Source: a virus (taxonomy: Duplodnaviria > Caudoviricetes). From it: a stretch of DNA of 61,568 nt. Below, one piece after another: positions 13,758-58,466 of the stretch (position 1 is its first letter; each line of letters opens with the position of its first letter). The notes under the pieces are model-generated. The model was not told the DNA's origin, ran no database searches, and saw only the letters and a list, made by a program, of their open reading frames with translations. The stretch spans positions 1 through 61,568 of the IMG/VR virus record IMGVR_UViG_3300030107_002736; one strand, written 5' to 3'. Position numbers and translations under genes: made by a program.

Positions 13758-16700
13758 ATGCCACAATGGAAAAAGTTACCGGATGGCAGTTGGGATTTTG
13801 TTCCTGATAATATCTCAATTTATAATCAGCTATCCCAGCCGTACTCAAGTTACGATTGGTCACAGTTTTCTGCACAGAGTTCTCCGTTTCAGGCCCGAGA
13901 AAGACAGCAGGATGGCAGCCTTTTTGGGTCTGCAATTGAAGGCCTAAAAAGTATTCCTGCTGGGTTTGTTGATGTCCCTGCACGAATACTTCAGTCCGGT
14001 ATAGGTGCTGTTACACCCTTTGCTGACCTGCCAATTGAAAAACGTTTGCGGGAAGCGGCAAGAAGGCGTCAGCAGGAAGGGTTTGTTTTTAGGCGAGATC
14101 CGACTTACTTGGACGCATTTCTTCCAGACGTGGGAGCAGGCCTTGGCCAAGTCGGTGCCCTTTCTCTTTTGGGTAGACTTGCTACCAGAATGGGTCCATA
14201 CGGACTAATTGCTGGTGGTGTAGCTCTTGGCATAAGCGAACAGATTAATCGGATGGCAGACCAGGAGCAAAAGTCTGGCAAAGACATTCCGTGGTATACT
14301 GAAACGCCCGCCCACCTTATTGGAGGATTGATCGGGCTTTCTGAGATGGTAACGCCACTTAGGTTACTCAAGGGTTTTCCTGGCGCAGCAAAGAGTCCGT
14401 TCTTTAAGCGCATGATCAGGCAAAGCAGGCCAGCAACAGCAGTTTTTTCGGCTGCAGGTATGCGTTCGGCGTTAGGTAGCACGGGGGCGGAGGCGCTACA
14501 AGAAGGCTTTGCTCAGGGTTTGCAATCCGCTACAGCCAGAGGCTTGTACGACCCTGACGCGCTCAAAGACGTGGCACACTCAATGATGGAAGAGGCCAAG
14601 GTCGGCGGTGTCGTTGGTGGTATAGCGGATGTCCTGGCCACATCAATGCGTGGCTACAACATCAGAGGTATGGGCTACGACACAGAAGACCATTTTCAAG
14701 AAGAAGTGTCGCTACAAAGGGCTGATGCTCGGCGGCGTAAAAGCAAGGAAGCAGAAGATTTTTTTAAGGAATTGGACTCAAGTCTGGTTCGTAGGGACAT
14801 AGACCCGATTCTGAAAGAGTACGGAATATCTGAAGGGCTTGCCGAAGATATCCATACCTTGTTTCACGGCGCACATGCAGACATGCCCCTGCACCTTGAG
14901 CACTCGTTAGCGTCTGGAGAGCTAGACGTAGAAACAATGGCGGTGCTAAGGAACAGGTTTAGCGCGAACGCGGAGCGAGCGGCGGCGCAACTGGAAAAAT
15001 TGTCGAACAAAAGCAAAAGCCCGTTACAAAGACGACAGCTTTATAGGGGAGCAAAGGCCATTAGAGAAATCTTGGGCAAGCGCCTATCAGCTCTCGACAA
15101 AAGAATTGAGTTAGCAGGCTACGGGATTGTAAAGCTGGGGGGACTGACAGATTCGACGCAATACCAAGCCATTAGATCTGATGCAAACATTCCCGAGGTT
15201 GTTGACTCTTCTTGGGACACAATCGTTGGTATTGGCCACCAGCGAGACGCTGCCATTAAAGCGGGACAACCGATGCCTGAATACAAAACCATTCTAGAAG
15301 ACTACATGGGTGGTTCAGCCGGTAGGATAGGTCTCTTTAGGATGGCCGAAGTACTGGGTGTTCACGGAGGCCCAGGGTCAGATGCGATTGATGTGGATCG
15401 GGTAGAAAGCAATGGGCACATACCCGACAAAACACTGTCATCTTCGGAGGCAGCAAATTTTTCCTTAGGTGATGTAGGAAGGGTTTTGTTTGGCCGCAAA
15501 GGAGACAGGGGGGTTATAGCTGGCCTGCAATACACAGACGACCTAGGACTTTCTGCAGAGCTTGAAACAATCAATGAAAGAATAAAAACACTAGAAGGTG
15601 AGCTGGATAAGGCATACACAGAGCACCCACGGTTTCGCGAAGTTGCGGAGGCAAAAAAGGGTGAGGTATATGAGTCTGATGATGCGTGGACCCTAGATAA
15701 AAACAAAAACATTGAAAACTGGTTATTAAAAAGCTCGCAAATTTCAAGCCTGATTGCAGGAGAAAACTTTAAAAGAAATGAACTGTACTCAAGGATGGTT
15801 CTTCAGCGGCTGCTTCATGCCAAACGAGTGTTCGACACCCCAGGCACGGACCCTCAAACCTATCGACAAAACAAAAAACTAAAACTAGAAGCTGCCAACG
15901 ACTTAGAGCTTACCACGTCCAAGGACCCCAATGAGCAGGAGGCCGCACTTGATGCGTGGTTACAACAATCAATTGAAGATGCGCAGAACACCTACGACAG
16001 AAGCGTGGAGCGTCAGGCAAGGCTAGATGCGCGTAAGGCAGAAATTGAAAAGAAAATTGCTTCCACAGAAGACGAATCGCTTCTTGTTGAATTGCGTCAA
16101 CAACAGGTACACGACGTTGATGCGCACAAAATGTTTACAAGGGACACTTCCGCAGCACAGCTTGCTCGTTTAGCCACATTTTTTAATAAAGATGTCAGGG
16201 CTAGACGAGATGCAATTGATCAGCGTTTAATGATGAGAGCGTATGCTGACATCAGTGGTTGGGCGTCGAGAAACGATCATCGTCTTACGGTAGCTGAGTC
16301 AGGACAGACTACATCAAGGGAACTGAAAAAATTTATAGAAGATGTCCTGCCAACCCGCTTAAAAAGACATGAAACAATTCAAGAAAATTTAACACGAACA
16401 TACGAAAAGCTAAGAGGCTCAGCCAAGAAGTCCCCAACCTTTGAATCACTGGTCAGGGCACAGTTTGGCGATGGGCGGGACTCAGTAAGAAAGTACGAAG
16501 AAGCTTACGGTCTCGTTACGGCTGATGACGTTGAAACTTTGCTAAAAAGCAAAAATATTTTTTTAAGGGGTGGGGTTCCAGGAAAAGACAAAGACAAGGC
16601 GGTCAAAGGGAACATTGGAAAAACCCTTGAGCGAAGGCTGGGGACGGGTGTAGAAAGCAGGCCCTTTAAATCTCTTCTTCAAAACCTGACTGGTGCCAAG

Positions 16701-19700
16701 AGCTGGGCTACTGCAAGCCCTGGCCAACGCCTGCTTATGTACTCGCGTTTGCTCCAGCTTCCTGCGCACCGGATGACGCTAGACCCTCGTGGCAAGGTGG
16801 ACTCAGAGGGCGGTGGGTTCATGCCGTTATTCCTGCCAACATTTGAGCACAACCCAAAGGCAGATGAATACCTTGAGTCAATCATGGATGTTCTTATCAG
16901 GCCTTACGCATTTAAAGATGAGCGAGCAATTCCTGGTGAACAGAGACGCACAGTTCAAAACATCAGAAATGTAATTGAACAGCAACGAACTCAGGCTGGC
17001 CAAGAGTTTGATGGAATAGAGTTTGATGAGGCACTGGCAACACTTATTGAATCAGGGGTCCTTGATCACGGAGAAAGCTCAGACGCAGACCTTATAGAAG
17101 AGGGCGCTATACTTAGGCCCAGCGAAGGGTCCCTCGCCCCAACAAGAGAGGGGCAACTTGGAAGCCCGAGCAACCCCAAGACAGCAGAAACGGTCCCCGA
17201 ACTAGAAGATGTGTTGACATTTACAGAGGCTGGTGAAGGTGGCTTAAAAACCAAGGTTGATTTTAACTATCGGGGCCATCCACTGTCGGCTATTACTCTG
17301 GGGCATAAAACAATTATCACGGTTGATAATGAATACAGCTCAGATATTCAGTTCGGTGACATACTAGAACTAGACGATCCAACCGGACTAGAAGACGAAA
17401 TTCGACGGATTGGCGATGAGTACGAAAAGGGGTTAATAACGGACCAGATGATGGACTTTTTCTTGTCTAAAGCTGGGCACCGGATACTAGTAAGGGCTGG
17501 AGGACAAGGAACTCCTTTGGCCTGGAGATTTAACTATGCCACGTTAAGCGATATCGCTACACAGTTATCCAACTACAGGGACGGAATATCGAATCCAAAG
17601 GTTCGCACAGCGAACGCTGCGAAGGTTGCAAGAATCGACGGGGCAACTGAACCCGTCGAGTTTGATAAAGCCAGGGTGGTTCCCATGAGATATAGGGATG
17701 GCGACCAAGGTTTAGCCATGCGACCTGGGCTCGAAGGAGCAACAACGCTTGATTTGATTAGGCAAGGACTGAGGACCTCCACTAGCCGACAAAAGAGATT
17801 TCCTATCACGGTTGGGCAAATCATCAAGGTGCAGGGCAAGGACCGGAGCGACTATGATTTTGTGCGCGTTACGTCTGGCTGGAAAAGCCTAGACGAAGTT
17901 GATCAGGCAACATGGACCGAAATGGAAGGGTGGGGCGCTGAAGCATATGAGAAGCTGCGCAAAAAAGGGTATTCCTACTTTACCTACGAAAGGGTAGACC
18001 CAAGCGAGATTGCTAGTAAGTCACGGGACGCAGAAAAGGCTGCAATCGCTACAGCTGTTGTTGGAGAGGTCAATGATCAGCTTGACCCGCTTGGCAACTC
18101 AAAGCTTTCAAGATACATGGAAGCCTTGAAGCCAAGCTTTACGGCCTTCCATTTCGGTACACGGCTATTCAAAAATGAAGCAGACTTGCCGGACCCATCC
18201 GACCTTGTGACTGACGGGATGCAATTGATTAGGCTGGAAAAGCCCTTCACCAGCGAAGATGTTATATGGGTGTCTACCGATATTGGCGTAACTGCATCAA
18301 CTGTCTCTGATTTAAGTAATGTTGTTCCTGTGGAAAGGGTGCTTCGGGCTGTCGTAGATGGGGAGCTGCAGGGAGTATACAAAGCTGTTGACCTTGCAAT
18401 TGAGGCAAGGGCGTCCATTGTTATGGACAAGAAAGACGAGGTTGCCCCTGACGATGTGGCCCAGAAGGAGCTGATAGCCTATCTCGAAGACAAGGGCTAT
18501 GTCAGGATGCCAGAAGATAGTTCAGTGGCCGCGCCAATAGCTGATGAGGGTGGTGACGCTTCCGATTACAGAATAAGAGCTTGGGCACAAAGAAAAAAAG
18601 ACAGGTCGATTGCAAAGAGATTCAACCCCGAAAGTTCTAATAGTGGTGTCTGGGTTTACAACGGTGCCGTAGACTGGGCGCAACAAAACAACTCCTCTGC
18701 GCGTCCATACGCGCAGCTCGTCAAGGACGGGGCTGTAACGATTCCAGTGAAACCGTTCGAGTCATTCGACATACCAGATTGGACGGAGTATGCGGCTTTT
18801 CTGGAGGACATTAGAACTGAATACGCAAAGTCTGGAGTGCTTCCTTATTTGACCGAAGCGGGTTTTGGTGAACTAGATGCTAAACAAAAAATCAGGAACC
18901 AGTTAATACGAAACCCGAGTCTTTTAACGCCAGCAAGCTCAGTCGTGCATGATTATTATAGCGACAAGACAACAAGCGGTCTCACTATTATAGGAGAGTT
19001 ACTGTCTAAACGCAGAAGCAAAGAAGATCGTCTTGATTTTTTAAGACAAGTGCTTCCGGTTATCAATCAAGTGGAACGGGAGTCGCGCACCCTGGGCCCC
19101 ACCATTGAAGAATGGAAAGACATTCTTTCAACGGTAGGATTAAAGCATGTTCCCTATTCAGAGTTTATGCCAGACGTAGATGTAGATGACATTAGTGACG
19201 ACGATTTAAAAAAGTACGAGGAAGAATCTCGTCAGATACTGGGCGACAACACGAGGCTTGATGGAATAGAATTTTCAAAAGAAGACTTGGTTTGGCAGAG
19301 AAGGTACCAGCTACTGCACGATTTGGTGGCCCCTGAGGCCAAGGCCTTTTTTGTAGTTGGAAGCGCCCCCGATGCAGACTACCTGGGTTTTTCGAGCAAC
19401 TTTGGAAGCGATGCCCAAGTGGAAAGGGATGACGAGCAGTACACGTTTATTAATCGCGCTAAGATGTTGCAGTCGTTCGAGCTTTCTGGAGAAAAAGCCG
19501 TTCCCGTCTGGAAGGTTCAGGGCGGCATTGTGACCAAGGACCAAGTAGTTAGGGGTGGCGACACTGACTCAACTTTCTACGCAAACGTAAGGAAGTTTAC
19601 CCCTGACGGTGTTCCCGGCCTTGGGCCGGATGGGTTTGAACGCATTGAAGACTCGTTGGTTATGCTAATAGCCCACGAAAAAGCTCACAGTTTTATAACT

Positions 19701-22700
19701 GCCCAGCTTGTTGGAACAGAAAGGGGTCAGTTCGATAAGGGGCAGGGGGATATAAGTAGCGCCATCTATGAAGACGTAATCAACAACTACGCCTTAAACG
19801 AACTGCCAAGATTGGCGTGGGCAGCCCTCAGGTCTCGTATGGAAACGAGGCGGCTAGACAAGCTCAGGGCTGCGCCCAAGTCGTTTAAGGCTGACACCGT
19901 TAGCCCCAACCTTAACATCATAGAAGGTGCGCGGAGGATGCCGCTCGGTGGCGACTTTGTATCCGACGTAATAGAGCGTCAGGCAGAGCTTGAAGACCAG
20001 TCACCAAGGTCTGACTACCACAAGCACGTCAGAGAAAACAAAAAAATATTTGAGGCCAAAGCAAGCGCAGTCAGGGTCAAAGAAATACTTAATGATCCGA
20101 AGATGAAAAAGCATGTCGATGATGCTGTACGCAGATGGAACAAGCAAAACGAAAAGAAGATCACCAGAAAAGAGTATATAGAAAGATATGCTTCTCAGAT
20201 AACCTCTACGCTTGGGTTGCAGGCATTAGAGGATGCTGGTGTCTTGGAGTCGGTCTCGGGCCGACTAAGGCGAGCGGAAAACATTCCGGCAACGGAATCA
20301 GTTCTTCGCTTCAACACTTCCGAAGGATCAAAAATACTTAGTGAGTTGATTGTGGGTGACGCTGTACCCACATCAATAGAAGCTCGGGCCTCTGCAGTCA
20401 GGAGAGCCCATCTGGAAGAATCACAAAAGCGTTTTGGGCACCTCAAAACCGAAGCCCTTATCACGTTAGCCAAGTTGAGGGTGCCCGATAACATCAAAAC
20501 TCAGTTTGTTGACGATATAGATGGTCTGTTTCAGGGGAACAGTGAGGTAATGGTCAGAGGGGAAATGCTACCCCAAACAAGAGCTGCCGTTTACGACTCT
20601 GCAGCAAACAGAATTATTATCAACCTGGCCGCCATCGACCCTGATAACATGATGGACGCAGAGATGGTTATTCGCGAGGCCGTGACCCACGAGGCAATCC
20701 ACGCGCTTAAGGCCAGGGGTCATTTTTACGAAAGCGAGCTAAGCCACCTTAGAGCGTATGTAAGAAACAACGTGGTTCCAGAGGAGTGGGACAAGGAAGC
20801 TCACGACATGGGACTGACTTGGTTTGAGAGGGAGGTTTACCGCCAAAAAGAATCAAACCTGGGTGAGCTTGAGGTAGAGGAAGAGTCGATTCTGGCGTTA
20901 ATGCAGGCCTTAAGCCAAGACGGTGTGCCCGAGGCGCGTGAAGGTGGTAGTGGTGCCAAGCTGCGTAAAACTAAAAACCGGATGATGGAATTCTTTGATG
21001 CGGTTGTTGGCGCAGCCAAGGAAACGGATATCGGCGGCGTTATGAAAATATTTTCTGCCGTAGAGTCTGGCGCTGTGGGTATGCGGGGTGCTGGGTACAG
21101 AGGAGAGACGGACTTTGACGCTGAAAAAGATGAGATTAGGTCCATGCGTCTGTCTCGTTACGCAGACCCTGCCGAACTGCAAGAGCTGACAAAAGCTATT
21201 GCCTTGCGAGATGCTGCACCAAACGAATCTATGAGGTCTAAGGAGCAGGAAAAAGTAGACAAGATCGCTGACCGGATAGTGGGCAGAAGGTCCAGGATAC
21301 AGGAGTCGGCAAATCCTGTTGACGGAGTACAGGCCATAGACAATGAACGCAGGGCCGTTGAAGAGGTCAGGGCGACAAACTCCTACGCTATTCCCCTCTT
21401 GGGCAACAAGATGTGGACCGCAAAGGACAACCGACAAGCCAGAGATGCCGCACTGGATGAGTATTTCAGAATAAAGAAAGGTGAGTCCGGGTACACGATG
21501 CCTCGTGACTGGATGAACATGTTTGACAATCAAACAAGGAACACCACAACCCTTGAAGATTTAGTCAAAGAAGCGATAGAGAACGGGCTGGTTACGCCAA
21601 CAGCGAAGGGTGGCAGTTTCAAGAAGAGCCTTGAAGAGGGTGTGCTTGGTCCTGACAGCATATCAGGAAACAACCCAGAAGAGACTCTTGAAAATATTAA
21701 AACGTCAAGGGATCAGCTTAGGTATCAATTCCTTGATCGTCGTCAGTGGGTTGTTAAGCAAACTGACAGGTTGCTTGAGTTACAAAACAGAGCCTCTATA
21801 GATGCAGAAACAGCAGCTTTGGTTGCGATCAGAAACGCTGACAACGCAGTAAACTGGCTTGAAGGAATAATGGAGCGCGGCCCAATGTCGTACCTAGGGC
21901 AGAGCACTTCTAGGGGCAGTTGGGATATTGCGCCCGTGTACGACGACCAGCTTCAAGAGAAGTACGGCGGGGACGGTCAGGTTGGTAGCCTGCTTGACAT
22001 ATTTGCTTTTATTGCCAACCCGAAGGATGAGCAGGCTGCCGCCGTATATGGTATGGCCAAGCGTATCCGGTGGACCAGGCTTCGCAGGGACGAGACAAGG
22101 GCTCAGGTGTACCCAGACCCAATGCGACCAAACATCGAACGTGATCTTCAAAGCCCAGAATTAGCTAGTCAGCTACGAATGTTCGACGAAGCCTACGAAA
22201 GAATAAACCCCAAGAACAAAAAAACTGGCGAGCGGATGTGGTCTGAAGCTTTCCTTGATAAGGTTATTGAGGATACCGAGGCAAACAACGAGCACATCAT
22301 AGAGTTCTGGGATCACTATCAAGCCTTTAACAGAGCAATGATAGAGACTTCTTACAGGGCTGGACTTCTTACTAGGTCTCAGCGGGATGAGTGGATAGCA
22401 ATGCCATACACTCCGTTCTATCGCGACACCTCAAAGGAGGACCAAAGTCCGATTGGCTCATCTGGCGAGATGGTCAAGCGAGGGAAGGTGATGGTTGAGC
22501 GGGCCATCAGGGGAAGCTTTGAGCCCATAAAGTCCGACCTGGTGTCGAACATTATGGAGAACACTCAAGCCCTGATTAGAGATATGACTATGAATGTCGC
22601 TACCGCCCGAACTGCAAGGGATGCGGTTTCGTTAGGTGACGCGGAACAGGTTTCCGTGAGCGACATGCGCTCGGCTTTGGATGACAGGATCGTTCGCGTC

Positions 22701-24518
22701 ATGGAGAATGGCAAGGCAACCTACTACAGGTTTGCCGACCCTCAGTTGGCAATGTCGGTAATGATGCTGGGCTTTAATCCTAAAAAGCAGTTAGCAGATT
22801 TGTTTGGCGGAACCGATAAGGGCAAGGCCCTGTCCAAAATAATGACTGGACCGGCACAGCTCCTAAGAACGAGCGTGACAAAGACCCCAGCGTTCCATCA
22901 AAAAAATATTTTTAGAGATTCTTGGAATGCAAGCACCCTTATCGGTGGTGGCCCCGGACTTCTCCTGGACTCTCTTAAAAACGCAATTGACCCCAGCTCC
23001 CTAAGAAGGGCGCAGGAGAAAGGGCTGTCAGTTGGTATTGATTTTGTTGCCAACCCTGACGAGTACGGGCTGGAGATGCGCAAGCAGCTCGACCGTAGCA
23101 AGATAGACTGGACGAATCCACTGTCACCTGTTGCGGCAATGTGGCACTTCCTTGGCAGGCTTTCAAAGCAGTCAGAGGTTGCGACAAGACTTGCCGTGTA
23201 CGACAGGGTGATGGCGTTAACTGGAGACAGGGCCCTTGCTCAATACTTGGCTATAGAAATTATGAACTATGGTCGAAGGGGCGCGAATCAGGCTTTTAGT
23301 ACATTCTTGTCCACTGTCCCCTTTATGAACGGTAGGCTGCAGGGTCTTGATGTTCTGTACAGGGGGATCAGGTCTGGCGGCAGAAGCGGTCGCGGTGTTT
23401 CGGATATTCCGGGCATATGGGGCTACGGCCTGAGCAAGGACCAGTACAAAGATCTTCCTTTGTGGAAGAGAAATAGATCTCAGTTAGTTGGAAGAGGTAT
23501 GCAACTCACTGCTGCTACAATGCTGTACTATTTAATGATGCACGACGACGAAGAATATCAAGGGCTTCGTGACGAGGAGAAAGCGGACAACTGGCTACTT
23601 CCTTTGTCGGGTCATGCGTGGTTTAAGTTGCCGATTCCTTTTGAGGTCGGCGTACTTTTTAAAGTTATTCCTGAACAGCTAATGATGGCTATTCTCGAAA
23701 AAGAACACACGCTTGGTGACGCAGGAGCGGAAGCCGTTCGGCAGCTTAGAACATCTTTAAGCTTTGGTGCCCCGCAGTTCATTGCTCCCTTGTATAACGC
23801 TGCTCGCAACTACGACACCTACAGAAAGGATGCCATTGTAGATCAGTGGACTGCGTTGCGTGAGCCAAACCAGCAAAGGGAGATGTACACAAGCAATGTG
23901 GCTCGCTCTATAGCAGATACCGTAAACGCGATTCCTGGGATGAGAGAGATAGATTTTCTGTCCTCTCCCATGAAAGTCGAATACTTGATGCGCCAGTATC
24001 TGGGCACTATGGGGATGTACGGAATCACGATAGCTGATAGGGTGGCGCGTCAAGGGTATCTTCCGTTACCCAACTGGTCGGACAAAGAAAACATTGTAGG
24101 CACCAGCCTTGATTTTGATTTTGAATCCGTTCTTGGTGGCCCAGGGGTTGTGAATGTTCCACTCTTAGGGGATCTGTTAACAGACCCACGGGTGGGAGCA
24201 GGTAGACAACAAGACTTTTACGAGGTCTTGGGGGAGCTTGACGAAGTTGTAGCTACGCTAAACTCAATTAACGAAACAGACCGCAGGGAAGGGTTTGCTT
24301 ACGCACAAAAACACAGGGCGATGCTGGCACAGAAAAACAGGCTCAGCCACCTGCGGAATCAAATGCGAGCGTGGAGAATCCGCAGGGAGGCGCTACAAAA
24401 AAGAGGTGGCAGCATGACCATCGACGAAAAGCGAGCACAGTACTTACGCATGCTTGAAACACGAGAAGGCATATTAACTGGCGTTAGAGATATTATGGCC
24501 AAAGTAAGGGGCGCATAA
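13758..24518 (+). CDS. Giant polyvalent virion protein (ASCH-like domain, two HExxH motifs, C-terminal LPD38-like domain)
   Basis: 3586 aa. HEKAH at 19674-19688 and HEAIH at 20688-20702. LIRQGLRTSTSR...VRVT ASCH-like segment at about 17690-18000. NYGRRG...VPFMNGRLQG...KLPIPFEVG resembles LPD38. Confidence 0.75.
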   Translation: MPQWKKLPDGSWDFVPDNISIYNQLSQPYSSYDWSQFSAQSSPFQARERQQDGSLFGSAIEGLKSIPAGFVDVPARILQSGIGAVTPFADLPIEKRLREAARRRQQEGFVFRRDPTYLDAFLPDVGAGLGQVGALSLLGRLATRMGPYGLIAGGVALGISEQINRMADQEQKSGKDIPWYTETPAHLIGGLIGLSEMVTPLRLLKGFPGAAKSPFFKRMIRQSRPATAVFSAAGMRSALGSTGAEALQEGFAQGLQSATARGLYDPDALKDVAHSMMEEAKVGGVVGGIADVLATSMRGYNIRGMGYDTEDHFQEEVSLQRADARRRKSKEAEDFFKELDSSLVRRDIDPILKEYGISEGLAEDIHTLFHGAHADMPLHLEHSLASGELDVETMAVLRNRFSANAERAAAQLEKLSNKSKSPLQRRQLYRGAKAIREILGKRLSALDKRIELAGYGIVKLGGLTDSTQYQAIRSDANIPEVVDSSWDTIVGIGHQRDAAIKAGQPMPEYKTILEDYMGGSAGRIGLFRMAEVLGVHGGPGSDAIDVDRVESNGHIPDKTLSSSEAANFSLGDVGRVLFGRKGDRGVIAGLQYTDDLGLSAELETINERIKTLEGELDKAYTEHPRFREVAEAKKGEVYESDDAWTLDKNKNIENWLLKSSQISSLIAGENFKRNELYSRMVLQRLLHAKRVFDTPGTDPQTYRQNKKLKLEAANDLELTTSKDPNEQEAALDAWLQQSIEDAQNTYDRSVERQARLDARKAEIEKKIASTEDESLLVELRQQQVHDVDAHKMFTRDTSAAQLARLATFFNKDVRARRDAIDQRLMMRAYADISGWASRNDHRLTVAESGQTTSRELKKFIEDVLPTRLKRHETIQENLTRTYEKLRGSAKKSPTFESLVRAQFGDGRDSVRKYEEAYGLVTADDVETLLKSKNIFLRGGVPGKDKDKAVKGNIGKTLERRLGTGVESRPFKSLLQNLTGAKSWATASPGQRLLMYSRLLQLPAHRMTLDPRGKVDSEGGGFMPLFLPTFEHNPKADEYLESIMDVLIRPYAFKDERAIPGEQRRTVQNIRNVIEQQRTQAGQEFDGIEFDEALATLIESGVLDHGESSDADLIEEGAILRPSEGSLAPTREGQLGSPSNPKTAETVPELEDVLTFTEAGEGGLKTKVDFNYRGHPLSAITLGHKTIITVDNEYSSDIQFGDILELDDPTGLEDEIRRIGDEYEKGLITDQMMDFFLSKAGHRILVRAGGQGTPLAWRFNYATLSDIATQLSNYRDGISNPKVRTANAAKVARIDGATEPVEFDKARVVPMRYRDGDQGLAMRPGLEGATTLDLIRQGLRTSTSRQKRFPITVGQIIKVQGKDRSDYDFVRVTSGWKSLDEVDQATWTEMEGWGAEAYEKLRKKGYSYFTYERVDPSEIASKSRDAEKAAIATAVVGEVNDQLDPLGNSKLSRYMEALKPSFTAFHFGTRLFKNEADLPDPSDLVTDGMQLIRLEKPFTSEDVIWVSTDIGVTASTVSDLSNVVPVERVLRAVVDGELQGVYKAVDLAIEARASIVMDKKDEVAPDDVAQKELIAYLEDKGYVRMPEDSSVAAPIADEGGDASDYRIRAWAQRKKDRSIAKRFNPESSNSGVWVYNGAVDWAQQNNSSARPYAQLVKDGAVTIPVKPFESFDIPDWTEYAAFLEDIRTEYAKSGVLPYLTEAGFGELDAKQKIRNQLIRNPSLLTPASSVVHDYYSDKTTSGLTIIGELLSKRRSKEDRLDFLRQVLPVINQVERESRTLGPTIEEWKDILSTVGLKHVPYSEFMPDVDVDDISDDDLKKYEEESRQILGDNTRLDGIEFSKEDLVWQRRYQLLHDLVAPEAKAFFVVGSAPDADYLGFSSNFGSDAQVERDDEQYTFINRAKMLQSFELSGEKAVPVWKVQGGIVTKDQVVRGGDTDSTFYANVRKFTPDGVPGLGPDGFERIEDSLVMLIAHEKAHSFITAQLVGTERGQFDKGQGDISSAIYEDVINNYALNELPRLAWAALRSRMETRRLDKLRAAPKSFKADTVSPNLNIIEGARRMPLGGDFVSDVIERQAELEDQSPRSDYHKHVRENKKIFEAKASAVRVKEILNDPKMKKHVDDAVRRWNKQNEKKITRKEYIERYASQITSTLGLQALEDAGVLESVSGRLRRAENIPATESVLRFNTSEGSKILSELIVGDAVPTSIEARASAVRRAHLEESQKRFGHLKTEALITLAKLRVPDNIKTQFVDDIDGLFQGNSEVMVRGEMLPQTRAAVYDSAANRIIINLAAIDPDNMMDAEMVIREAVTHEAIHALKARGHFYESELSHLRAYVRNNVVPEEWDKEAHDMGLTWFEREVYRQKESNLGELEVEEESILALMQALSQDGVPEAREGGSGAKLRKTKNRMMEFFDAVVGAAKETDIGGVMKIFSAVESGAVGMRGAGYRGETDFDAEKDEIRSMRLSRYADPAELQELTKAIALRDAAPNESMRSKEQEKVDKIADRIVGRRSRIQESANPVDGVQAIDNERRAVEEVRATNSYAIPLLGNKMWTAKDNRQARDAALDEYFRIKKGESGYTMPRDWMNMFDNQTRNTTTLEDLVKEAIENGLVTPTAKGGSFKKSLEEGVLGPDSISGNNPEETLENIKTSRDQLRYQFLDRRQWVVKQTDRLLELQNRASIDAETAALVAIRNADNAVNWLEGIMERGPMSYLGQSTSRGSWDIAPVYDDQLQEKYGGDGQVGSLLDIFAFIANPKDEQAAAVYGMAKRIRWTRLRRDETRAQVYPDPMRPNIERDLQSPELASQLRMFDEAYERINPKNKKTGERMWSEAFLDKVIEDTEANNEHIIEFWDHYQAFNRAMIETSYRAGLLTRSQRDEWIAMPYTPFYRDTSKEDQSPIGSSGEMVKRGKVMVERAIRGSFEPIKSDLVSNIMENTQALIRDMTMNVATARTARDAVSLGDAEQVSVSDMRSALDDRIVRVMENGKATYYRFADPQLAMSVMMLGFNPKKQLADLFGGTDKGKALSKIMTGPAQLLRTSVTKTPAFHQKNIFRDSWNASTLIGGGPGLLLDSLKNAIDPSSLRRAQEKGLSVGIDFVANPDEYGLEMRKQLDRSKIDWTNPLSPVAAMWHFLGRLSKQSEVATRLAVYDRVMALTGDRALAQYLAIEIMNYGRRGANQAFSTFLSTVPFMNGRLQGLDVLYRGIRSGGRSGRGVSDIPGIWGYGLSKDQYKDLPLWKRNRSQLVGRGMQLTAATMLYYLMMHDDEEYQGLRDEEKADNWLLPLSGHAWFKLPIPFEVGVLFKVIPEQLMMAILEKEHTLGDAGAEAVRQLRTSLSFGAPQFIAPLYNAARNYDTYRKDAIVDQWTALREPNQQREMYTSNVARSIADTVNAIPGMREIDFLSSPMKVEYLMRQYLGTMGMYGITIADRVARQGYLPLPNWSDKENIVGTSLDFDFESVLGGPGVVNVPLLGDLLTDPRVGAGRQQDFYEVLGELDEVVATLNSINETDRREGFAYAQKHRAMLAQKNRLSHLRNQMRAWRIRREALQKRGGSMTIDEKRAQYLRMLETREGILTGVRDIMAKVRGA

Positions 24519-34851: not shown

Positions 34852-35481
34852 TCAGGACTTTGTTTTGTTTTGTGTATACCCAGCCATTAAAGATCTGTAA
34901 CTAAAGTTCTTGCCAAGGGCTTCTTCGATTCCAATCTGCTCTGTTTCAAACCCCAACACCCCACCCTCAGGGTGCCTGTAATAGCACACAGCACTGACGG
35001 TAGCCTGACCATAGACAAACCGGCGGCCAAGCTCAGTCAGCCTCCACATCCCCGAAGAACGCTTGTCCTGCAAAGGGTCCTTGGACATACGCTCAATGAG
35101 CCCCCAGTACCGAAGCTTTGCGTAGTCTCCACCGCCATTGATTGCGCCAGAAGATGGAACGTGATGGTATCTGCGTAGGGACTCACTCTTGGATACATAA
35201 GACGGAAGATTGCTTTTCTTTGTGTCCATGTAGGCAAGCCAACAAAGAACCCTAGCGTATGATCCCATCTTGTAGGCGTACACCTTACTCCTGCCCCCAC
35301 ACAAGGTGCACTTTGAGATAGGTTGCCTAGAGAGTTCTCTAAGCTCGTCCAAAGGGGTGGAAAAGCTGTCGGGGTACTGAAACGCCTCGGGGTCATTGAC
35401 GGGTTCTCTCGCTTCGTCGAACAGCGATGTCTGTCTCTCGTCACGCATTGCGTCCTCTAACCAATCGTTCAACTGAGCCAT
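34852..35481 (-). CDS. Hypothetical protein (CxxC plus a winged-helix-like segment)
   Basis: 209 aa with CTLC, KLRYWGLIE and GMWRLTELG; GAGGAG RBS. Confidence 0.65.
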   Translation of the reverse strand: MAQLNDWLEDAMRDERQTSLFDEAREPVNDPEAFQYPDSFSTPLDELRELSRQPISKCTLCGGRSKVYAYKMGSYARVLCWLAYMDTKKSNLPSYVSKSESLRRYHHVPSSGAINGGGDYAKLRYWGLIERMSKDPLQDKRSSGMWRLTELGRRFVYGQATVSAVCYYRHPEGGVLGFETEQIGIEEALGKNFSYRSLMAGYTQNKTKS

Positions 35482-35571
35482 GTTTACTCGCTCCTCTCTT
35501 AGAAATTTTAATTTAAATAACTTAAACCCAGAAAAATATTTTCATATTACCCAGTTTCTAGTACACCTTTA

Positions 35572-35600
35572 TTGACTATCCTTACATTAGTTCATATCAT
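35572..35600 (+). promoter_or_regulatory. Strong sigma70-type promoter antisense to the early operon
   Basis: TTGACT-17 nt-TATCAT with AT-rich upstream sequence and no + strand ORF downstream. Confidence 0.7.
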
Positions 35601-35605
35601 TCATG

Positions 35606-35686
35606 GCATACTACGATCCTCCTCTCTCGTAGTGGTTAACAAAAAAGGTGATGCACCCTCCTCCTGTGCGTCCCACCCCTTGGTTA
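35606..35686 (+). ncRNA. Putative small RNA with two hairpins exposing anti-Shine-Dalgarno loops
   Basis: TACTACGA[TCCTCCTCTC]TCGTAGTG and GATGCAC[CCTCCTCCT]GTGCGTC, with G-U pairs on the + strand, directly after the promoter. Confidence 0.6.
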
Positions 35687-35687
35687 G

Positions 35688-36311
35688 TCAGTCAGGCTCC
35701 GGCTCACTACCCAAGGGGTTTTTTGTTTGACCGAACAACTCCATCACATCTAGCCACTCGTCTGCGGGGACGGGCTCGTAAGAGGGGCCTTCAGAGTTGA
35801 ACCTCGCGATTGTAGGCACACGCTTGGCAAACTCCGTCTCCGCTCTTGTTAGCATCACCCTGTACCCATGCCCAACGACAAAGCAGGCTCCCCCTTCATT
35901 AACCACTTGGTCGGCAACCTTGCTCAGGTGCCTAGATTCTTTCCAGTCTGGCTTGGATTCCGTGTCGGTGTAAATAACTAAACCATTACCCAGGCCGTCG
36001 TTATGATTCTCTATCACAGCTACGCCACCCGCCCTGTCAGGCCTGTCGTCTAATGTGCCCTTGCCGTCCAGCCACATACAGGCAAAGAGTTGACACTCGG
36101 CAGGGTGCTCGCCGTAGATGCCACACCCCTCGCTTGTTAGGTGCTCGCACTGTACTCCGGCAGGTTTGTCCAGCTCGCGAATGTACATGGCGGTGCAACA
36201 CTCCGTGCAAGGCCCACACTTACGAAGCCTGCCCTGTGGCAATTTGGGATTGATCACAAGGCCTTTCCTGTTCCTGACCCAACCCTTCCTCTCCTTCCGC
36301 ATCCTTTTCAT
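35688..36311 (-). CDS. YkgJ-like CxxCxxCC cysteine-cluster protein
   Basis: CGPCTECC...CEHL...GCGIY..HP.EC.LF.C.W motif. Confidence 0.75.
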   Translation of the reverse strand: MKRMRKERKGWVRNRKGLVINPKLPQGRLRKCGPCTECCTAMYIRELDKPAGVQCEHLTSEGCGIYGEHPAECQLFACMWLDGKGTLDDRPDRAGGVAVIENHNDGLGNGLVIYTDTESKPDWKESRHLSKVADQVVNEGGACFVVGHGYRVMLTRAETEFAKRVPTIARFNSEGPSYEPVPADEWLDVMELFGQTKNPLGSEPEPD

Positions 36312-41897: not shown

Positions 41898-42262
41898 GTC
41901 CGTAGCTCTTGAGCGTACCCGTTGATACGGATGGCCCCATCTAACATATGGTTCGGGTTGGGAGCCTGAGCCATTGCCCTTAAGAGACTTTCGTAGTGGC
42001 CCACGGATATCATTCGGAGCATATCAGCCTCACGGGTAGCTTGCTCTAGTCGCAACTTCAGATCGTCAATAGCGGCATCTTTATACTCAGCTTCTGATTC
42101 TTTTTGCCCTAAGACATGGCAGACATTATCTGCTAACTGCTCCACCGCTTCCTTCTTGGTGAGCTTCATGTACTGATCAGTCAGCATGTCGAACCTCTCC
42201 TTCCGTTTCCGCTCACGCTTCCGCGCCCTTCTCTTCTCTTCCTTCCTCCACTTATTCCACAT
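41870..42262 (-). CDS. Hypothetical early protein with a basic N-terminus and coiled coil
   Basis: AGGAGGAG RBS; 130 aa. Confidence 0.55.
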   Translation of the reverse strand: MWNKWRKEEKRRARKRERKRKERFDMLTDQYMKLTKKEAVEQLADNVCHVLGQKESEAEYKDAAIDDLKLRLEQATREADMLRMISVGHYESLLRAMAQAPNPNHMLDGAIRINGYAQELRTCLVEESGS

Positions 42263-42443
42263 CGTTCTTCTCCTCCTTAGACCTGTTTAAGACCACAACG
42301 TGTGCGCCCAACCTTTCCGCAAGTGTGAAATATGCAGGGTTTAGGTTGCGTTTTGAAATGAACATTCTGCCGATCCTAGAATCTTTCCTAGGCATCCCAT
42401 AATGTTTCTCCAAGTACATTTCCTCCTCACTTAATTCACTCAT
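42252..42443 (-). CDS. Hypothetical early protein
   Basis: ATG 42443 preceded by GAGAGGAGGAGG. Confidence 0.55.
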   Translation of the reverse strand: MSELSEEEMYLEKHYGMPRKDSRIGRMFISKRNLNPAYFTLAERLGAHVVVLNRSKEEKNDVE

Positions 42444-42601
42444 CTTCCTCCTCCTCTCTCTCGTCAAACATAGGGTGAACAATTGGTGCCATCAGTATAC
42501 GCAAGATGGCATTCACTTCTACGATTAGCATCGTGTTCTTGCGTTCAATGCGCTCAAAGGTCCGGTTATACGCACGTTCCTCTCGTTCGCGCTGATCCTC
42601 T

Positions 42602-42991
42602 CTAGTCAACGTCATAGTATTCCTTTAGTTGGGTTGCCGCATCCTCAAGGCCTCTTTGCCTGTCCTGCTCCTTGGACCATTCTTCGGCAGTCCAAAATTG
42701 CTCTGGGGTTATGAGCCCCGTCGCCCTGAGGTGCATCTGTTCACGTTCAATGAGATACTTCATGCGAGTCGGCGACTGTCCCAACAACCACTTCGCATTT
42801 ATGACGATGTTCTTTCCGTCGTTGCTCATGGTTTTGGTACCAGAAGGAAACTTTTCTTCAATTAATTCTTTAGCCCTGGCCCTCGCCCCGTCCTCCATCC
42901 GGTCCATGACACGACCAAACAGAAACACATTGAGAACGATGAACCAGAATAGTCCCATTGCACATAGGACAACACTGATCAAGGTTATCAT
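42602..42991 (-). CDS. Hypothetical membrane-anchored early protein
   Basis: N-terminal TM; ATGA coupling. Confidence 0.6.
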   Translation of the reverse strand: MITLISVVLCAMGLFWFIVLNVFLFGRVMDRMEDGARARAKELIEEKFPSGTKTMSNDGKNIVINAKWLLGQSPTRMKYLIEREQMHLRATGLITPEQFWTAEEWSKEQDRQRGLEDAATQLKEYYDVD

Positions 42992-46321: not shown

Positions 46322-46360
46322 AAAAAAAAGCGGGAGCCGGGTTGTTAGCCCGACCCCCGC
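46322..46360 (-). terminator. Intrinsic terminator of the orphan gene
   Basis: GCGGGGGTCGGG / CCCGGCTCCCGC followed by T8, about 21 nt after the stop codon. Confidence 0.85.
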
Positions 46361-46381: not shown

Positions 46382-47368
46382 TTAGGCCCAAGGATCCTCT
46401 TTAGTGGGCTGGATGCGAAGCACCTCCGGCGTAGCTAGATCCTCCAAGCAACGCATATCGGATTCGATCTTAGACTTCGCCCGTGCCATCCCACGATGCT
46501 TCGCCTCCAGCTGGTCGTAGAGGGCGTTAAGCTTCATGGTTCCCGCGATGACAATCGACATCGTGTAGTTATGAGGCTTCTGGCCCCACACGATGTCAGT
46601 CACGCGCTCGCCGTCCTCGGTGTCCCGCATGGTGTACTCGGAACGAGGGTTACGAAGCACCCAGAGGGTGTCGGGATCTCCCACTGGATGACCGTAAAGC
46701 ACCAGCTGAGTGTCATCGGCGATGAACTCACGATGAACCTGGAAAGCCATACGGGAGATCTCCACCCACTTAGCTGGCTTACCCATAACGGCACCGCTCA
46801 AGACGGCGAGCATTTCACGCGCATGACCCTCAGAGAGCAGAGAAGCGCAAATGTTCTGGATATCCCTACGCTTCCCTGTCCAGGGACGGTGGGCAGTCTT
46901 GCCCCAATCTGTCCGCGAGCCCGCAGGCTGTGTCGGGACAGGAGTTTCCTGTTGGTCGGCAACGGGAAGCGCGTTCCACTCAGTCATAGCCCGAACATAT
47001 TCGGCTTGAGCGGAGTCGTAAGCCCGCCAGCCGACGCGCTTGGAGGCGTGGAGCATGCCGTTATAAACATCATTGAACAACTGTATGACTGCCGCACGAG
47101 GCATAGACGCCTTAAGCTTTCCAGCCTTCGTGAAGTGGTCGGACAGGAAGTCGGTCAGGCGTCCCAGTATGAGTTGCATCTGCTGGTGGGCCTTCGTCGT
47201 AGCTTTGGCCGTCTCTTTGGCCTTAGGACCGACTTGTGCAATGATGTTGGCCACGTCGGCGACATACTCACTGAGGGCTTTGAAACCCTCGTGGCAGACG
47301 CGAGTGACTGTACCGCGAAGCTTCTCGGCCTTAGCGAGAGCCTGCGGGGACTGTGTTACCTCATCCAT
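46382..47368 (-). CDS. Orphan 328-aa protein, stand-alone transcription unit
   Basis: Likely start ATG 47368 (GAGGT RBS), its own terminators, no recognisable motif. Confidence 0.75.
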   Translation of the reverse strand: MDEVTQSPQALAKAEKLRGTVTRVCHEGFKALSEYVADVANIIAQVGPKAKETAKATTKAHQQMQLILGRLTDFLSDHFTKAGKLKASMPRAAVIQLFNDVYNGMLHASKRVGWRAYDSAQAEYVRAMTEWNALPVADQQETPVPTQPAGSRTDWGKTAHRPWTGKRRDIQNICASLLSEGHAREMLAVLSGAVMGKPAKWVEISRMAFQVHREFIADDTQLVLYGHPVGDPDTLWVLRNPRSEYTMRDTEDGERVTDIVWGQKPHNYTMSIVIAGTMKLNALYDQLEAKHRGMARAKSKIESDMRCLEDLATPEVLRIQPTKEDPWA

Positions 47369-47411
47369 GTTAACTACCTCGTAGTTATGGATCTGTGTGC
47401 CGTAAAGCGAA

Positions 47412-47957
47412 TCTCTACAGCTGACGCAATACCACGGGGTGCGCTCGACTGGGGATGTCAAGGGCAAGAGATTCCAGTGTCGCATACTTGCGACCGAATC
47501 TCTTGGGCCGAAGGCCTAGCACCCTTGATATTCCTCGTTTTCGGCAGTTATAAACAAAGGCTTCGCGTAAGCGCGAAGTCCTCATTGCACTTAGAACTTA
47601 GAACAATGGTTTGTTCTAGGTTCTTATGTGCAATACGAAAACCGTGCACCGTGATATTGGAAAGCTGTAGAGAGCATTGGTAGCTTTCTTTAGAGTGCAG
47701 ACCTTGAACGCGAAGCCAAGGTCGGCAGAGTCAGTTGACTATCCTTCTAGGTTTGGTCCTACAGTGTCTAGTCCCTAGTAGATTGAAGTTAACTTAGGTA
47801 TCTAGACTGTCAGGACCAAACCAATAAACAAAAGTTAGTTGACTGACGCCTCTCTAAAGAAAGCCTTGCCGGTACAAAGAAAAGGGTAGATCGACGCTTG
47901 TTACTACATGGCCGAACTTTTCTTTGCTGAGTTTTTAGCCTCGGGGTAAAAACTCAG
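47412..47957 (+). ncRNA. Large multi-domain structured element (ncRNA or folded ssDNA)
   Basis: At least 12 nested helices of 7-22 bp, with non-Watson-Crick pairs mostly G-T on the + strand. Confidence 0.6.
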
Positions 47958-56844: not shown

Positions 56845-57780
56845 ATGGCTATTTCACGCGCACAACTTCTAAAGGAACTCCTCCCTGGACTTAACGCTCT
56901 CTTTGGAATGGAGTATGCACGTTATGATGACGAGCACTCCGAGATATATGAGACGGAAAGCTCAGATCGTTCCTTTGAAGAAGAAGTGAAGCTTTCGGGC
57001 TTCGACGCAGCCCCCGTCAAAGACGAGGGATCTGCGATTTCCTACGATGCTGCACAGGAGAGCTTTACGGCTCGTTACAACCATGAGACTATCGCCATGG
57101 GCTTCGCCATTACGGAAGAAGCCATGGAAGACAATCTCTATGACTCCCTGTCGGCTCGTTACACTAAGGCCCTGGCTCGTGCCATGGCTCACACCAAGCA
57201 GGTCAAGGCTGTTGTTCCTCTGAACAACGGGTTTACCAACGCTTACCAGAGCGGCGATGGTGTTAACCTTTTCACAGCGTCTGGTGACGGTGTAACTGGT
57301 GGTGACGGTCACCCACTCGTTTCGGGTGGTAAGAACTCAAACCGTCCAGCTACAGCTGTTGACCTCAACGAGACCTCTCTTGAGGCTGCTGTGATTCAGA
57401 TTGGCAAGTGGACGGACGAGCGTGGTCTAATGATCGCTGCACGGCCCCAGACGCTTGTGATCCCGCCCGACTTGCAGTTTGTCGCGGCACGGGTAATGCA
57501 GTCTGAGCTTCGCCCCGGAACTGCCGACAACGACATCAACGCTGTGCGTTCGATGGGTGTTGTTCCTGGCGGAACTGTTGTGAACCACTATCTCACAGAT
57601 ACGGACGCATGGTTCCTGCTGACGGATGTTCCGAACGGCATGAAGCACTTCAATCGTGTTGCACTTGAGACGAGCATGGACGGTGACTTTGACACCGGAA
57701 ACGTTCGCTACAAGGCTCGCGAGCGGTACAGCTTTGGAGTTTCCGATCCCCTAGGGATCTGGGGATCACCCGGAGCGTAA
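56845..57780 (+). CDS. Major capsid protein (HK97 fold, Mu gpT-like)
   Basis: MAISRAQLLKELLPGLNALFG..., PQTLVIPPDL, YLTDTDAWFL and RERYSFG; AGGAG RBS and a downstream terminator. Confidence 0.9.
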   Translation: MAISRAQLLKELLPGLNALFGMEYARYDDEHSEIYETESSDRSFEEEVKLSGFDAAPVKDEGSAISYDAAQESFTARYNHETIAMGFAITEEAMEDNLYDSLSARYTKALARAMAHTKQVKAVVPLNNGFTNAYQSGDGVNLFTASGDGVTGGDGHPLVSGGKNSNRPATAVDLNETSLEAAVIQIGKWTDERGLMIAARPQTLVIPPDLQFVAARVMQSELRPGTADNDINAVRSMGVVPGGTVVNHYLTDTDAWFLLTDVPNGMKHFNRVALETSMDGDFDTGNVRYKARERYSFGVSDPLGIWGSPGA

Positions 57781-57787
57781 TTTGGTT

Positions 57788-57835
57788 GGGGGTGGGAGCG
57801 CAATGTCGCTTCTGCCCCCTTCCTTGTTTTTTTTT
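57788..57835 (+). terminator. Intrinsic terminator after the capsid gene
   Basis: GGGGGTGGGAGCG / CGCTTCTGCCCCC stem followed by a T-rich tail including T9. Confidence 0.75.
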
Positions 57836-57881
57836 CCTGACTACCGAAAACGGTAGACACTAGCCAAGACAGGAGAATGTA

Positions 57882-58466
57882 ATGGCTGACACTACTTTTA
57901 GTGGTAATGTCCGGGCAGAAGGCGGCCTTGAGCAGGTAACCAAGAACGCCACAACTGGTGCATTTACCACAAACTTTGATGTAGACACTAGTGGTAACGT
58001 GTCGGGTACTGGTACGCTAAAGCTGACTGGTGCCACGAACATGGTCGCAGACTATGAGTCGATTACCACAGCAACCAAAACTCTAACAGCAGCCGATTCC
58101 GGCACTGTTTTTGGGTTCAACAAAGCAGACGGTATCGTAGTTACGCTCCCAACCCCAGCGGCTGGAATTATCTACACTTTTCTTGTAGAGACTACGTTTA
58201 CGTCAGCGGGTCAGATTAAGACCGCTACGACTGACGGCACCGATGGCTTCTTGGGAACCGCCTTCCTGTTTGACACAGGAGAGATTGGCGAAACTGACAA
58301 CTTCCACCCCACGTCATCAAACGATGTTATTGATTTGGGTGCTGTTGAGCAGGGCTGGCTTACTGGTGGTTTTATTAGGCTTACAGGCGTTAACACGACG
58401 ACTTGGTTTGTAGAAGCTTTCTTGATGGGTGACGGAACGCTAGCGACTCCGTTTACGGACAGTTAA
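57882..58466 (+). CDS. Virion structural protein (head fibre/spike-like)
   Basis: MADTTFSGNVR..., TLTAADSG...VTLP; T/G-rich. Confidence 0.65.
   Translation: MADTTFSGNVRAEGGLEQVTKNATTGAFTTNFDVDTSGNVSGTGTLKLTGATNMVADYESITTATKTLTAADSGTVFGFNKADGIVVTLPTPAAGIIYTFLVETTFTSAGQIKTATTDGTDGFLGTAFLFDTGEIGETDNFHPTSSNDVIDLGAVEQGWLTGGFIRLTGVNTTTWFVEAFLMGDGTLATPFTDS

Follow-up and report, generated by a model that had tools for sequence, protein, structure and literature searches.

A complete IMG/VR virus genome of 61,568 bp (the whole stretch of DNA analysed here, hereafter the window) contains an intergenic gap (35482-35687) between two - strand genes for proteins of 209 and 207 aa, and from this gap a complete predicted transcription unit reads in the opposite direction (35572-35728, +). 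The unit consists of a promoter, a first hairpin, an A-rich linker, a second hairpin and a terminator hairpin with its U-tract; its parts and surroundings are collected in Table 1.

Table 1 Features of the predicted sRNA unit and of its surroundings in the window.
Feature	Position	Strand	Remarks
Packaging and virion genes	45.5 kb via record end to 28.9 kb	+	small and large terminase, portal, major head protein, 3,586-aa ORF
Recombination genes	28.9-31.3 kb	-	
RusA, primase/helicase	32.0-34.2 kb	+	
Leftward block	34.3-45.3 kb	-	small unknown genes, AAA ATPase, DUF2201/VWA protein, SLT transglycosylase
209-aa gene (phrog_2693)	34852-35481	-	divergent from the sRNA promoter; commonest sRNA neighbour
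-35 box TTGACT	35572-35577	+	joint 10/12 sigma-70 match with the -10 box
-10 box TATCAT	35595-35600	+	17-nt spacer from the -35 box
Predicted sRNA, ~120 nt	35606-35728	+	start (35606-08) placed from the -10 box, end (~35724-28) from the U-tract
Hairpin 1	35610-35633	+	stem ACUACGA/UCGUAGU, loop UCCUCCUCUC (35617-26)
A-rich single-stranded linker AACAAAAAA	35638-35646	+	
Hairpin 2	35647-35674	+	stem GG-GAUGCAC/GUGCGUC-CC, loop CCUCCUCCU (35657-65)
Terminator hairpin and U-tract	35675-35728	+	intrinsic terminator; hairpin 35675-35719, U6 at 35719-24, then GUUU
207-aa Cys-rich gene (phrog_9155)	35688-36311	-	convergent; last ~10 codons overlap the sRNA terminator
Candidate target site GAGAGAGGAGGA	42449-42460	-	in the RBS of a 63-aa ORF starting at 42443; exact complement of 35617-28; candidate only

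No tRNA gene was detected across the whole window, and its gene layout shows no recognisable phage RNA polymerase, integrase or repressor. The nearest cultured phages, judged by large terminase and major capsid protein, are marine or aquatic with genomes of 52-65 kb: Synechococcus phage MinM2 and Planktothrix phages (47-72% identity), Pelagibacter phages HTVC027P and HTVC023P (54-63%), Roseobacter phages CRP-901 and CRP-902 (33-52%), and phage DSL-LC04. Cultured phage DNA gave no match to positions 35300-35900. Where the leftward block is called early below, this is an assumption.

Other parts of the window deserve mention in their own right. The 3,586-aa ORF (13758-24518, +) of the virion block has no PHROG family at E ≤ 1e-5, and the same holds for its three large neighbours (1,227, 728 and 577 aa). 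A Mu-gpT-DE RNA motif from Rfam lies at 57835-57884 (+; 52.7 bits, gathering score 49), directly 3' of the major head protein gene (56845-57780). Of the terminator-like sites in the non-structural region, the strongest (46330-46360, -; a 12-bp stem with 10 G-C pairs, and T8) directly follows a - strand ORF (46382-47485, 367 aa, no family), which suggests that this ORF, and not the + strand ORF 46496-47683 overlapping it, is the real gene.

The sRNA promoter, TTGACT-17-TATCAT, had been noted as near-consensus in a preliminary description of the locus, and its 10 matches to the 12 sigma-70 positions make it the joint best such site within 28.5-48.4 kb. Promoter-like sites as a class are at chance level in this interval (16 seen, 15.4 expected), so the weight of the sRNA promoter rests on its conservation in relatives. 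The two hairpins reported with it, carrying the loops UCCUCCUCUC and CCUCCUCCU, both appear in the predicted fold. The reported length of about 80 nt, with an end near 35686, has to be revised to about 120 nt, because the third hairpin with its U6 run forms a terminator. The whole sRNA folds at -49.7 kcal/mol (z -6.32), a value equalled by none of 200 shuffles; the opposite strand, taken over 251 nt, also folds better than its shuffles (z -2.5). An A-run precedes hairpin 2 in every two-hairpin variant of the RNA, and the linker that contains it in the window may bind Hfq (as an ARN site) or may simply mirror a U-run of the - strand.

The same description had called the gap free of ORFs, and indeed no credible + strand gene lies downstream of the unit. 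Two + strand frames of 52 and 50 aa do exist, but they have no usable RBS and are not kept in relatives, and a conserved + strand peptide was accordingly rejected.

Between the sRNA promoter and the 209-aa gene sits one copy (35533-35542) of the perfect palindrome AAAATATTTT, which recurs at 16552-61, 21045-54 and 22903-12. These four sites amount to eight strand-matches where 0.48 are expected, and none of 100 shuffles has as many. An akin motif, AAAAT(A/T)ATTT, takes the same position in most relatives. The copy at 35533 may act on the 209-aa gene as its promoter or operator.

Relatives were collected through the 209-aa protein, which yielded 11 viral and 27 metagenome loci with 48-98% identity. 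Many of them carry the sRNA unit upstream of the 209-aa homologue, the 20 copies representing 13 distinct sequences. A covariance model built from the window and two near-identical copies only (R1) recovered diverged copies and, in L025-L027, copies that flank the 209-aa gene on its opposite side. It also matched the terminator hairpin on the reverse strand, and such matches vanished with the second-round model (R2). R2 matches 23 of 39 sources, one match each and all on the strand predicted by the promoter, and none of the 39 has a reverse-strand match at E ≤ 1; two further viral contigs are matched as well. Within the window, the sRNA is the only + strand match of either model, and R2 gives a single copy.

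Some members are reduced. Two of five distant records (G001 and G003) have a one-hairpin form which keeps the promoter, the anti-Shine-Dalgarno (anti-SD) hairpin and the terminator and has no hairpin 2. Another one-hairpin form occurs in G002, a complete genome with terminal repeats, where R2 missed it and a pattern scan found it; G002 had been intended as an sRNA-free control and was dropped from that role. Over all loci of relatives examined, the pattern scan returned family members only.

The genes beside the sRNA vary: some copies are placed upstream of the 209-aa gene and others downstream, and further copies adjoin the 207-aa gene (whose homologue is the direct neighbour in L002 and G002) or an inserted gene. 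In every one of these settings the sRNA brings its own promoter and terminator. TTGAC[T/C/G] with a 17-nt spacer is kept in every family member compared, while the sequence of the spacer is free. The -10 boxes of relatives (TATTAT, TAAGTT, TAGTTT, TACATT, TACCTT, TAGATT, TAGGTT and TAATAC) take the form TAnnnT, and a U-run stands 3' of the last hairpin on the + strand in all members.

Bacterial and archaeal species genomes contained no relative of the 209-aa protein, and the 207-aa protein has only remote matches among cultured phages. The hairpin 1 pattern matched three times in 185,579 species genomes without a credible copy: the one match inspected is a chance match inside coding sequence, and the other two fit model positions 6-27 only. 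A pattern scan of phage DSL-LC04 between 14 and 40 kb found no sRNA.

Two groups of relatives have additional elements nearby. In L021, L022 (~2340-2420, - strand) and L023 (~330-410), tandem direct repeats stand immediately upstream of the -35 box of the sRNA, AACTATCATT in three or four copies and then AGTAGTATCT in two; these could be regulator binding sites for the sRNA promoter, or iterons. In L006-L014, where the sRNA is not beside the 209-aa homologue, a long G/C-rich hairpin (for example CCTGGGGGTTGGGCG...CGCCAACCCCCCCCCAGG) follows the preceding gene; next comes a very strong RBS, GGAGAGGAGGAGG, and then the 209-aa homologue.

We then asked how the structure varies across the family. 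In the structural alignment A5 (10 distinct rows), which was fitted to the covariance model and leans towards the structure, 98.3% of cells are paired and 20 of 32 pairs have changed on both sides. The observed values are reached by none of 500 shuffles, except that the measure of further pair types, taken alone, is reached by 24 of 500; controls with slid partners are 33-46% paired. An alignment of 11 members by MAFFT, evaluated with RNAalifold, gave only five pairs because it is not a structural alignment, and the covariance-model alignments were used instead.

The three hairpins have changed to different degrees. In the terminator hairpin 12 of 16 pairs covary. Hairpin 2 has changed on both sides in seven of nine pairs across relatives while keeping a CCUCC-type loop, and its stem has been exchanged wholesale between clades (GAUGCAC, GAACGA, GAAGGA, ACGUAC, AAGUGCG, UUUCUUACUC). 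The stem of hairpin 1 is the most constant within A5, with six of seven pairs invariant; it covaries in distant variants (ACUACGG/CGUGGU, ACUAUAAG/CUUGUGGU, ACUACA/UGUAGU) and is a different stem in the L003 group. Across all clades the loops keep CCUCC/UCCUC. Such a sequence also appears in the terminator of L021-L023, whose apex is a small hairpin, UGAUC[UCCUCC]GAUCA, with a third anti-SD loop, and CUCC is found in the terminator loop of several other clades. Conservation of this kind supports selection on the anti-SD loops.

The -35 and -10 boxes kept at 17-nt spacing, the 3' U-run and the G-U cells are evidence for the + strand as the strand of the sRNA. G-U pairs had been proposed to favour this strand, and 22 of 301 cells in A5 are G-U pairs that would mismatch on the - strand; the effect is modest, and the folding energy of the whole RNA, which makes the + strand more stable in only 10 of 16 members, does not settle the strand. 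We consider it very probable that the unit is a real, conserved and stand-alone RNA gene read from the + strand.

What the loops might pair with was examined through the Shine-Dalgarno (SD) sites of the window, with gene starts set by a simple SD-independent rule and not by a gene caller. AGGAGGA, which had been reported before the starts at 36311, 36715, 38670, 40854, 42262 and 44620, does precede all six, and it occurs 19 times in all where 7.9 ± 2.6 copies are expected, 15 of the 19 on the - strand. The weaker SD sites attributed to late genes were likewise borne out, the median pairing energy being -8.65 kcal/mol in the leftward block (n=22) and -4.9 kcal/mol in late genes (n=40; p 0.0026). 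The same asymmetry exists in G002 (-9.8, n=18, vs -5.4, n=38; p 0.0077).

An early/late difference in predicted targeting, as the preliminary description had anticipated, is present between the blocks: predicted pairing with both loops is stronger in the leftward block (p 0.006 and 0.004) and the longest complement to the loops is longer there (p 0.002 and 0.0001). However, this difference largely restates SD strength, since any anti-SD sequence pairs with any strong SD site. A further comparison sets the loops against the 16S tail, taking the better of two loops against one tail and a generic motif which may not be that of the host; on these terms 12 of the 22 leftward SD sites match the loops over a longer stretch, 6 show no difference and 4 match the tail over a longer one (p 0.014, Wilcoxon), and for the 40 late SD sites the corresponding numbers are 14, 10 and 16 (p 0.82). 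The leftward sites are mostly AGGAGGAG, and the two bases after GGAGG are AG in five of nine. The longer match to the loops fits co-adaptation of the leftward SD sites and the sRNA loops, though only indirectly.

Candidates for a specific target fared less well. The 12-mer at 35617-28 is, as had been pointed out, exactly complementary to the RBS of the 63-aa ORF (Table 1), but the match is near chance: 0.31 matches with at most one mismatch are expected, and 2 of 100 shuffles reach two matches. The 63-aa gene was not found in the relatives G006 and G007 (51% and 45% complete), and near-matches to the 12-mer pattern in three relatives were no commoner than those to a reversed-pattern control. 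The complementary site lies in a purine-rich stretch that is also coding: a 59-aa ORF ending in an acidic tail (DEREEEEDE; 42436-42615, -) shares an ATGA stop/start overlap with the ORF that starts at 42443 (42252-42443, -), and the codons of the acidic tail double as a long SD, GAGAGAGAGGAGGAGG.

The other candidate is the neighbouring 209-aa gene, whose RBS, AGAGAGGAG, is predicted to pair over 9 nt with the hairpin 1 loop; in five of eight variants its start region takes the first or second place among the local genes. Loop and RBS show no sign of co-evolution across relatives, cognate pairs (-13.47 kcal/mol) having no advantage over non-cognate ones (-13.44 kcal/mol; p 0.47 by permutation), and the 209-aa gene was dropped as a conserved specific target. 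No specific target is thus supported, given the near-chance 12-mer match and the lack of any advantage for cognate pairing with the 209-aa gene.

Our preferred reading, to which we give slightly better than even credence, is that the RNA acts in trans as an anti-SD sRNA which masks strong ribosome-binding sites; it is preferred because only the loop sequence, and neither the stems nor the neighbours, is constant across the family. In such a scheme the host sigma-70 RNA polymerase would transcribe the sRNA from its own near-consensus promoter until the intrinsic terminator ends it. The RNA would display its two single-stranded C/U-rich loops with the CCUCC core of the 16S anti-Shine-Dalgarno, and some relatives have a third such loop in their terminator hairpin. 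By base-pairing with purine-rich SD regions of mRNAs, the loops would vie with 30S subunits for these regions, so that translation, and probably also the stability of the mRNA, would fall. Within this genome the loops match best to the long AGGAGGAG/GAGAGGAG sites before genes of the leftward non-structural operon; host mRNAs with strong SD sites are equally possible targets. Transcription of the sRNA, its pairing in vivo, its target set, a role in timing and Hfq binding at the A-rich linker and U-tail are all parts of this scheme that we infer. Of 20 public sequencing runs that contain this DNA, none was listed as an RNA run.

The preliminary idea of a global early off-switch stays a hypothesis, if a plausible one. 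A broader version of it, which we put forward as speculation and think unlikely to hold as a whole, would make the sRNA a mimic of the ribosomal tail that serves a cosmopolitan uncultured marine phage lineage as a genome-wide translational timer. Made constitutively from a host-type promoter and stabilised by its terminal hairpins, the RNA would accumulate during infection and out-titrate the extended, (GGA)n-type SD sites of the phage's non-structural genes and of strong-SD host mRNAs, so that ribosomes would pass to the weak-SD late structural genes, in an RNA counterpart of T4 RegB.

The main rival to the trans-acting anti-SD reading, improbable in our view, is that the RNA is a cis-antisense regulator, which would pair perfectly with the read-through leftward mRNA (with RNase III processing) or act by polymerase collision and so tune the downstream genes, usually the 209-aa gene. 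The geometry suits this role: the sRNA is convergent with the surrounding operon in every context seen, and its terminator overlaps the 3' end of the 207-aa gene. In L026 and L027, moreover, ~10 nt separate the -35 box from the RBS of the gene that follows in the operon, and the mRNA of that gene therefore carries the complement of the sRNA or starts inside it. On the other hand, the orientation may simply be inherited, and G002 has no further - strand gene after the sRNA. A purely cis-antisense RNA could do its work with any loop sequence, yet the loops stay of the CCUCC type through changes of the stems.

It is considerably less probable still that the function lies in the - strand mRNA, where the loops read GAGAGGAGGA and AGGAGGAGG and the GGAGG they contain would provide standby sites for ribosomes, stabiliser sites, GGA sites of the CsrA type or the RBS of a tiny leader ORF, with hairpin 2 and the U-run as an attenuator. 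In 11 of 16 members an ATG does stand behind the complement of hairpin 1, at a distance like that from an SD site, and the - strand fold surpasses its shuffles. Read on that strand, hairpin 2 and the A-run become a hairpin and then a U-run, which would allow part of the element to act for the operon. A conserved tiny - strand ORF, which the preliminary description had named as an outcome that would overturn its reading, was sought among the 16 members and rejected: the frames have 2-88 codons and unrelated sequences, and five members have none. Moreover, a - strand function leaves both the conserved -35/-10 boxes at fixed spacing and the conserved + strand terminator unexplained, and it would turn the 22 G-U cells into mismatches on a strand where R2 finds no copy.

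Least probable, and very doubtful, is a protein decoy or sponge that mimics the 16S rRNA 3' tail or titrates an RNA chaperone such as Hfq, drawing off host sRNA networks, or a factor such as a nuclease or defence sensor of the host that recognises the anti-SD tail: the near-invariance of the hairpin 1 stem (where covariation is tolerated elsewhere) hints at recognition beyond pairing and the A-rich linker and U-tail would resemble those of Hfq-binding sRNAs, but that stem does change in distant variants, one-hairpin variants have no A-run and no candidate protein partner was identified.

Uncultured marine phages have so far yielded few conserved families of non-coding RNA, and the present one is defined well enough for virome annotation, by its promoter, one or two C/U-rich hairpins, terminator and covariation. 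Should the trans-acting reading, with its masking of ribosome-binding sites, be true, it would offer a testable model of how a phage with no RNA polymerase of its own separates expression classes at the level of translation, and it would mean that a 'cuckoo'-type design has arisen, or been borrowed, outside alphaproteobacterial chromosomes. Were it only a local antisense element, it would add modestly to what is known of gene regulation in phages.

The immunity RNAs c4 (P1/P7) and sar (P22) are small RNAs with which a phage occludes the RBS of one of its own genes nearby; c4 uses two loops. Those RNAs have one neighbouring target and extended complementarity to it, whereas the cognate loop/RBS pairing of the sRNA described here is no better than the non-cognate and the sRNA does not overlap the RBS of its neighbour. 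The phage-encoded SprX (RsaOR) has a loop motif that is UCCC-like. It comes from converting phages of S. aureus, and its C-rich loop pairs with an mRNA RBS and blocks ribosome loading (PMC4005690). SprX differs in belonging to a temperate phage of a Gram-positive host, in having one defined host target (spoVG) and in showing no relation in sequence or architecture.

Closer in design are the cuckoo RNAs of Rhizobiales and Rhodobacterales, which have two to four adjacent hairpins with CCUCCUCCC loops (PMC4615179). According to PMC4615179 and PMC8034643, this group (CcsR1-4/RSs0680 and alpha-r14, including NfeR1) has in common with the phage sRNA its adjacent hairpins with anti-SD loops, variable stems and a terminator-like last hairpin. 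The preliminary description had cited cuckoo/CcsR RNAs as established bacterial sRNAs with anti-SD loops, and the Rfam search places their models nearest, but far below threshold. CcsR1 (RF02791) reached 20.5 bits against a gathering score of 65.3 (E 0.0048 in a 201-nt search) and ar14 (RF02344) 16.4 bits against 58.8, with the full model aligned in both cases; CcsR1 was not listed in the 401-nt or whole-window searches, and the cuckoo models matched none of nine relatives' loci. At gathering thresholds, Rfam 15 assigned only the Mu-gpT-DE motif in the whole window and no family to the sRNA.

The architecture in the window, two anti-SD hairpins and a terminator hairpin, is of the cuckoo type, but neither UCCUCCUCUC nor CCUCCUCCU is the exact cuckoo 9-mer, the loop core common to the whole family is only CCUCC/UCCUCUC, and some members have a single anti-SD hairpin. 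Cuckoo RNAs are carried by chromosomes and plasmids of Rhodobacterales and Rhizobiales, in contrast to the present sRNA, which lies on a complete virus genome, has a sigma-70 promoter of its own and neighbours phrog_9155 and phrog_2693 and not DUF1127. A DUF1127 (CcaF1-like) gene is the hallmark neighbour of CcsR loci (PMC8034643), and a search of the 61.6-kb genome for this domain (PF06568) gave nothing at E ≤ 1. The word 'phage' does not occur in the text of the cuckoo article (PMC4615179), and a 2025 review on phage sRNAs, which names c4, mentions Shine-Dalgarno once, for a host sRNA (PMC12197685). In the literature searched, at the level of abstracts and outside subscription journals and supplementary files, no account of a family of anti-SD sRNAs was found for marine or lytic phages.

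As in the class of trans-acting anti-SD regulators, the sRNA is an independent unit with a promoter and an intrinsic terminator (its transcription being predicted), and its accessible C/U-rich loop is kept while the stems covary. Judged by these sequence features, it belongs to a new family of conserved phage sRNAs that are built like anti-SD regulators. In bacteriophage T4, the endoribonuclease RegB inactivates early mRNAs through the GGAG of their Shine-Dalgarno sites. RegB is a protein nuclease and not an RNA, and it would stand as a functional analogy to the logic first proposed for this sRNA, that of silencing early genes with strong SD sites.
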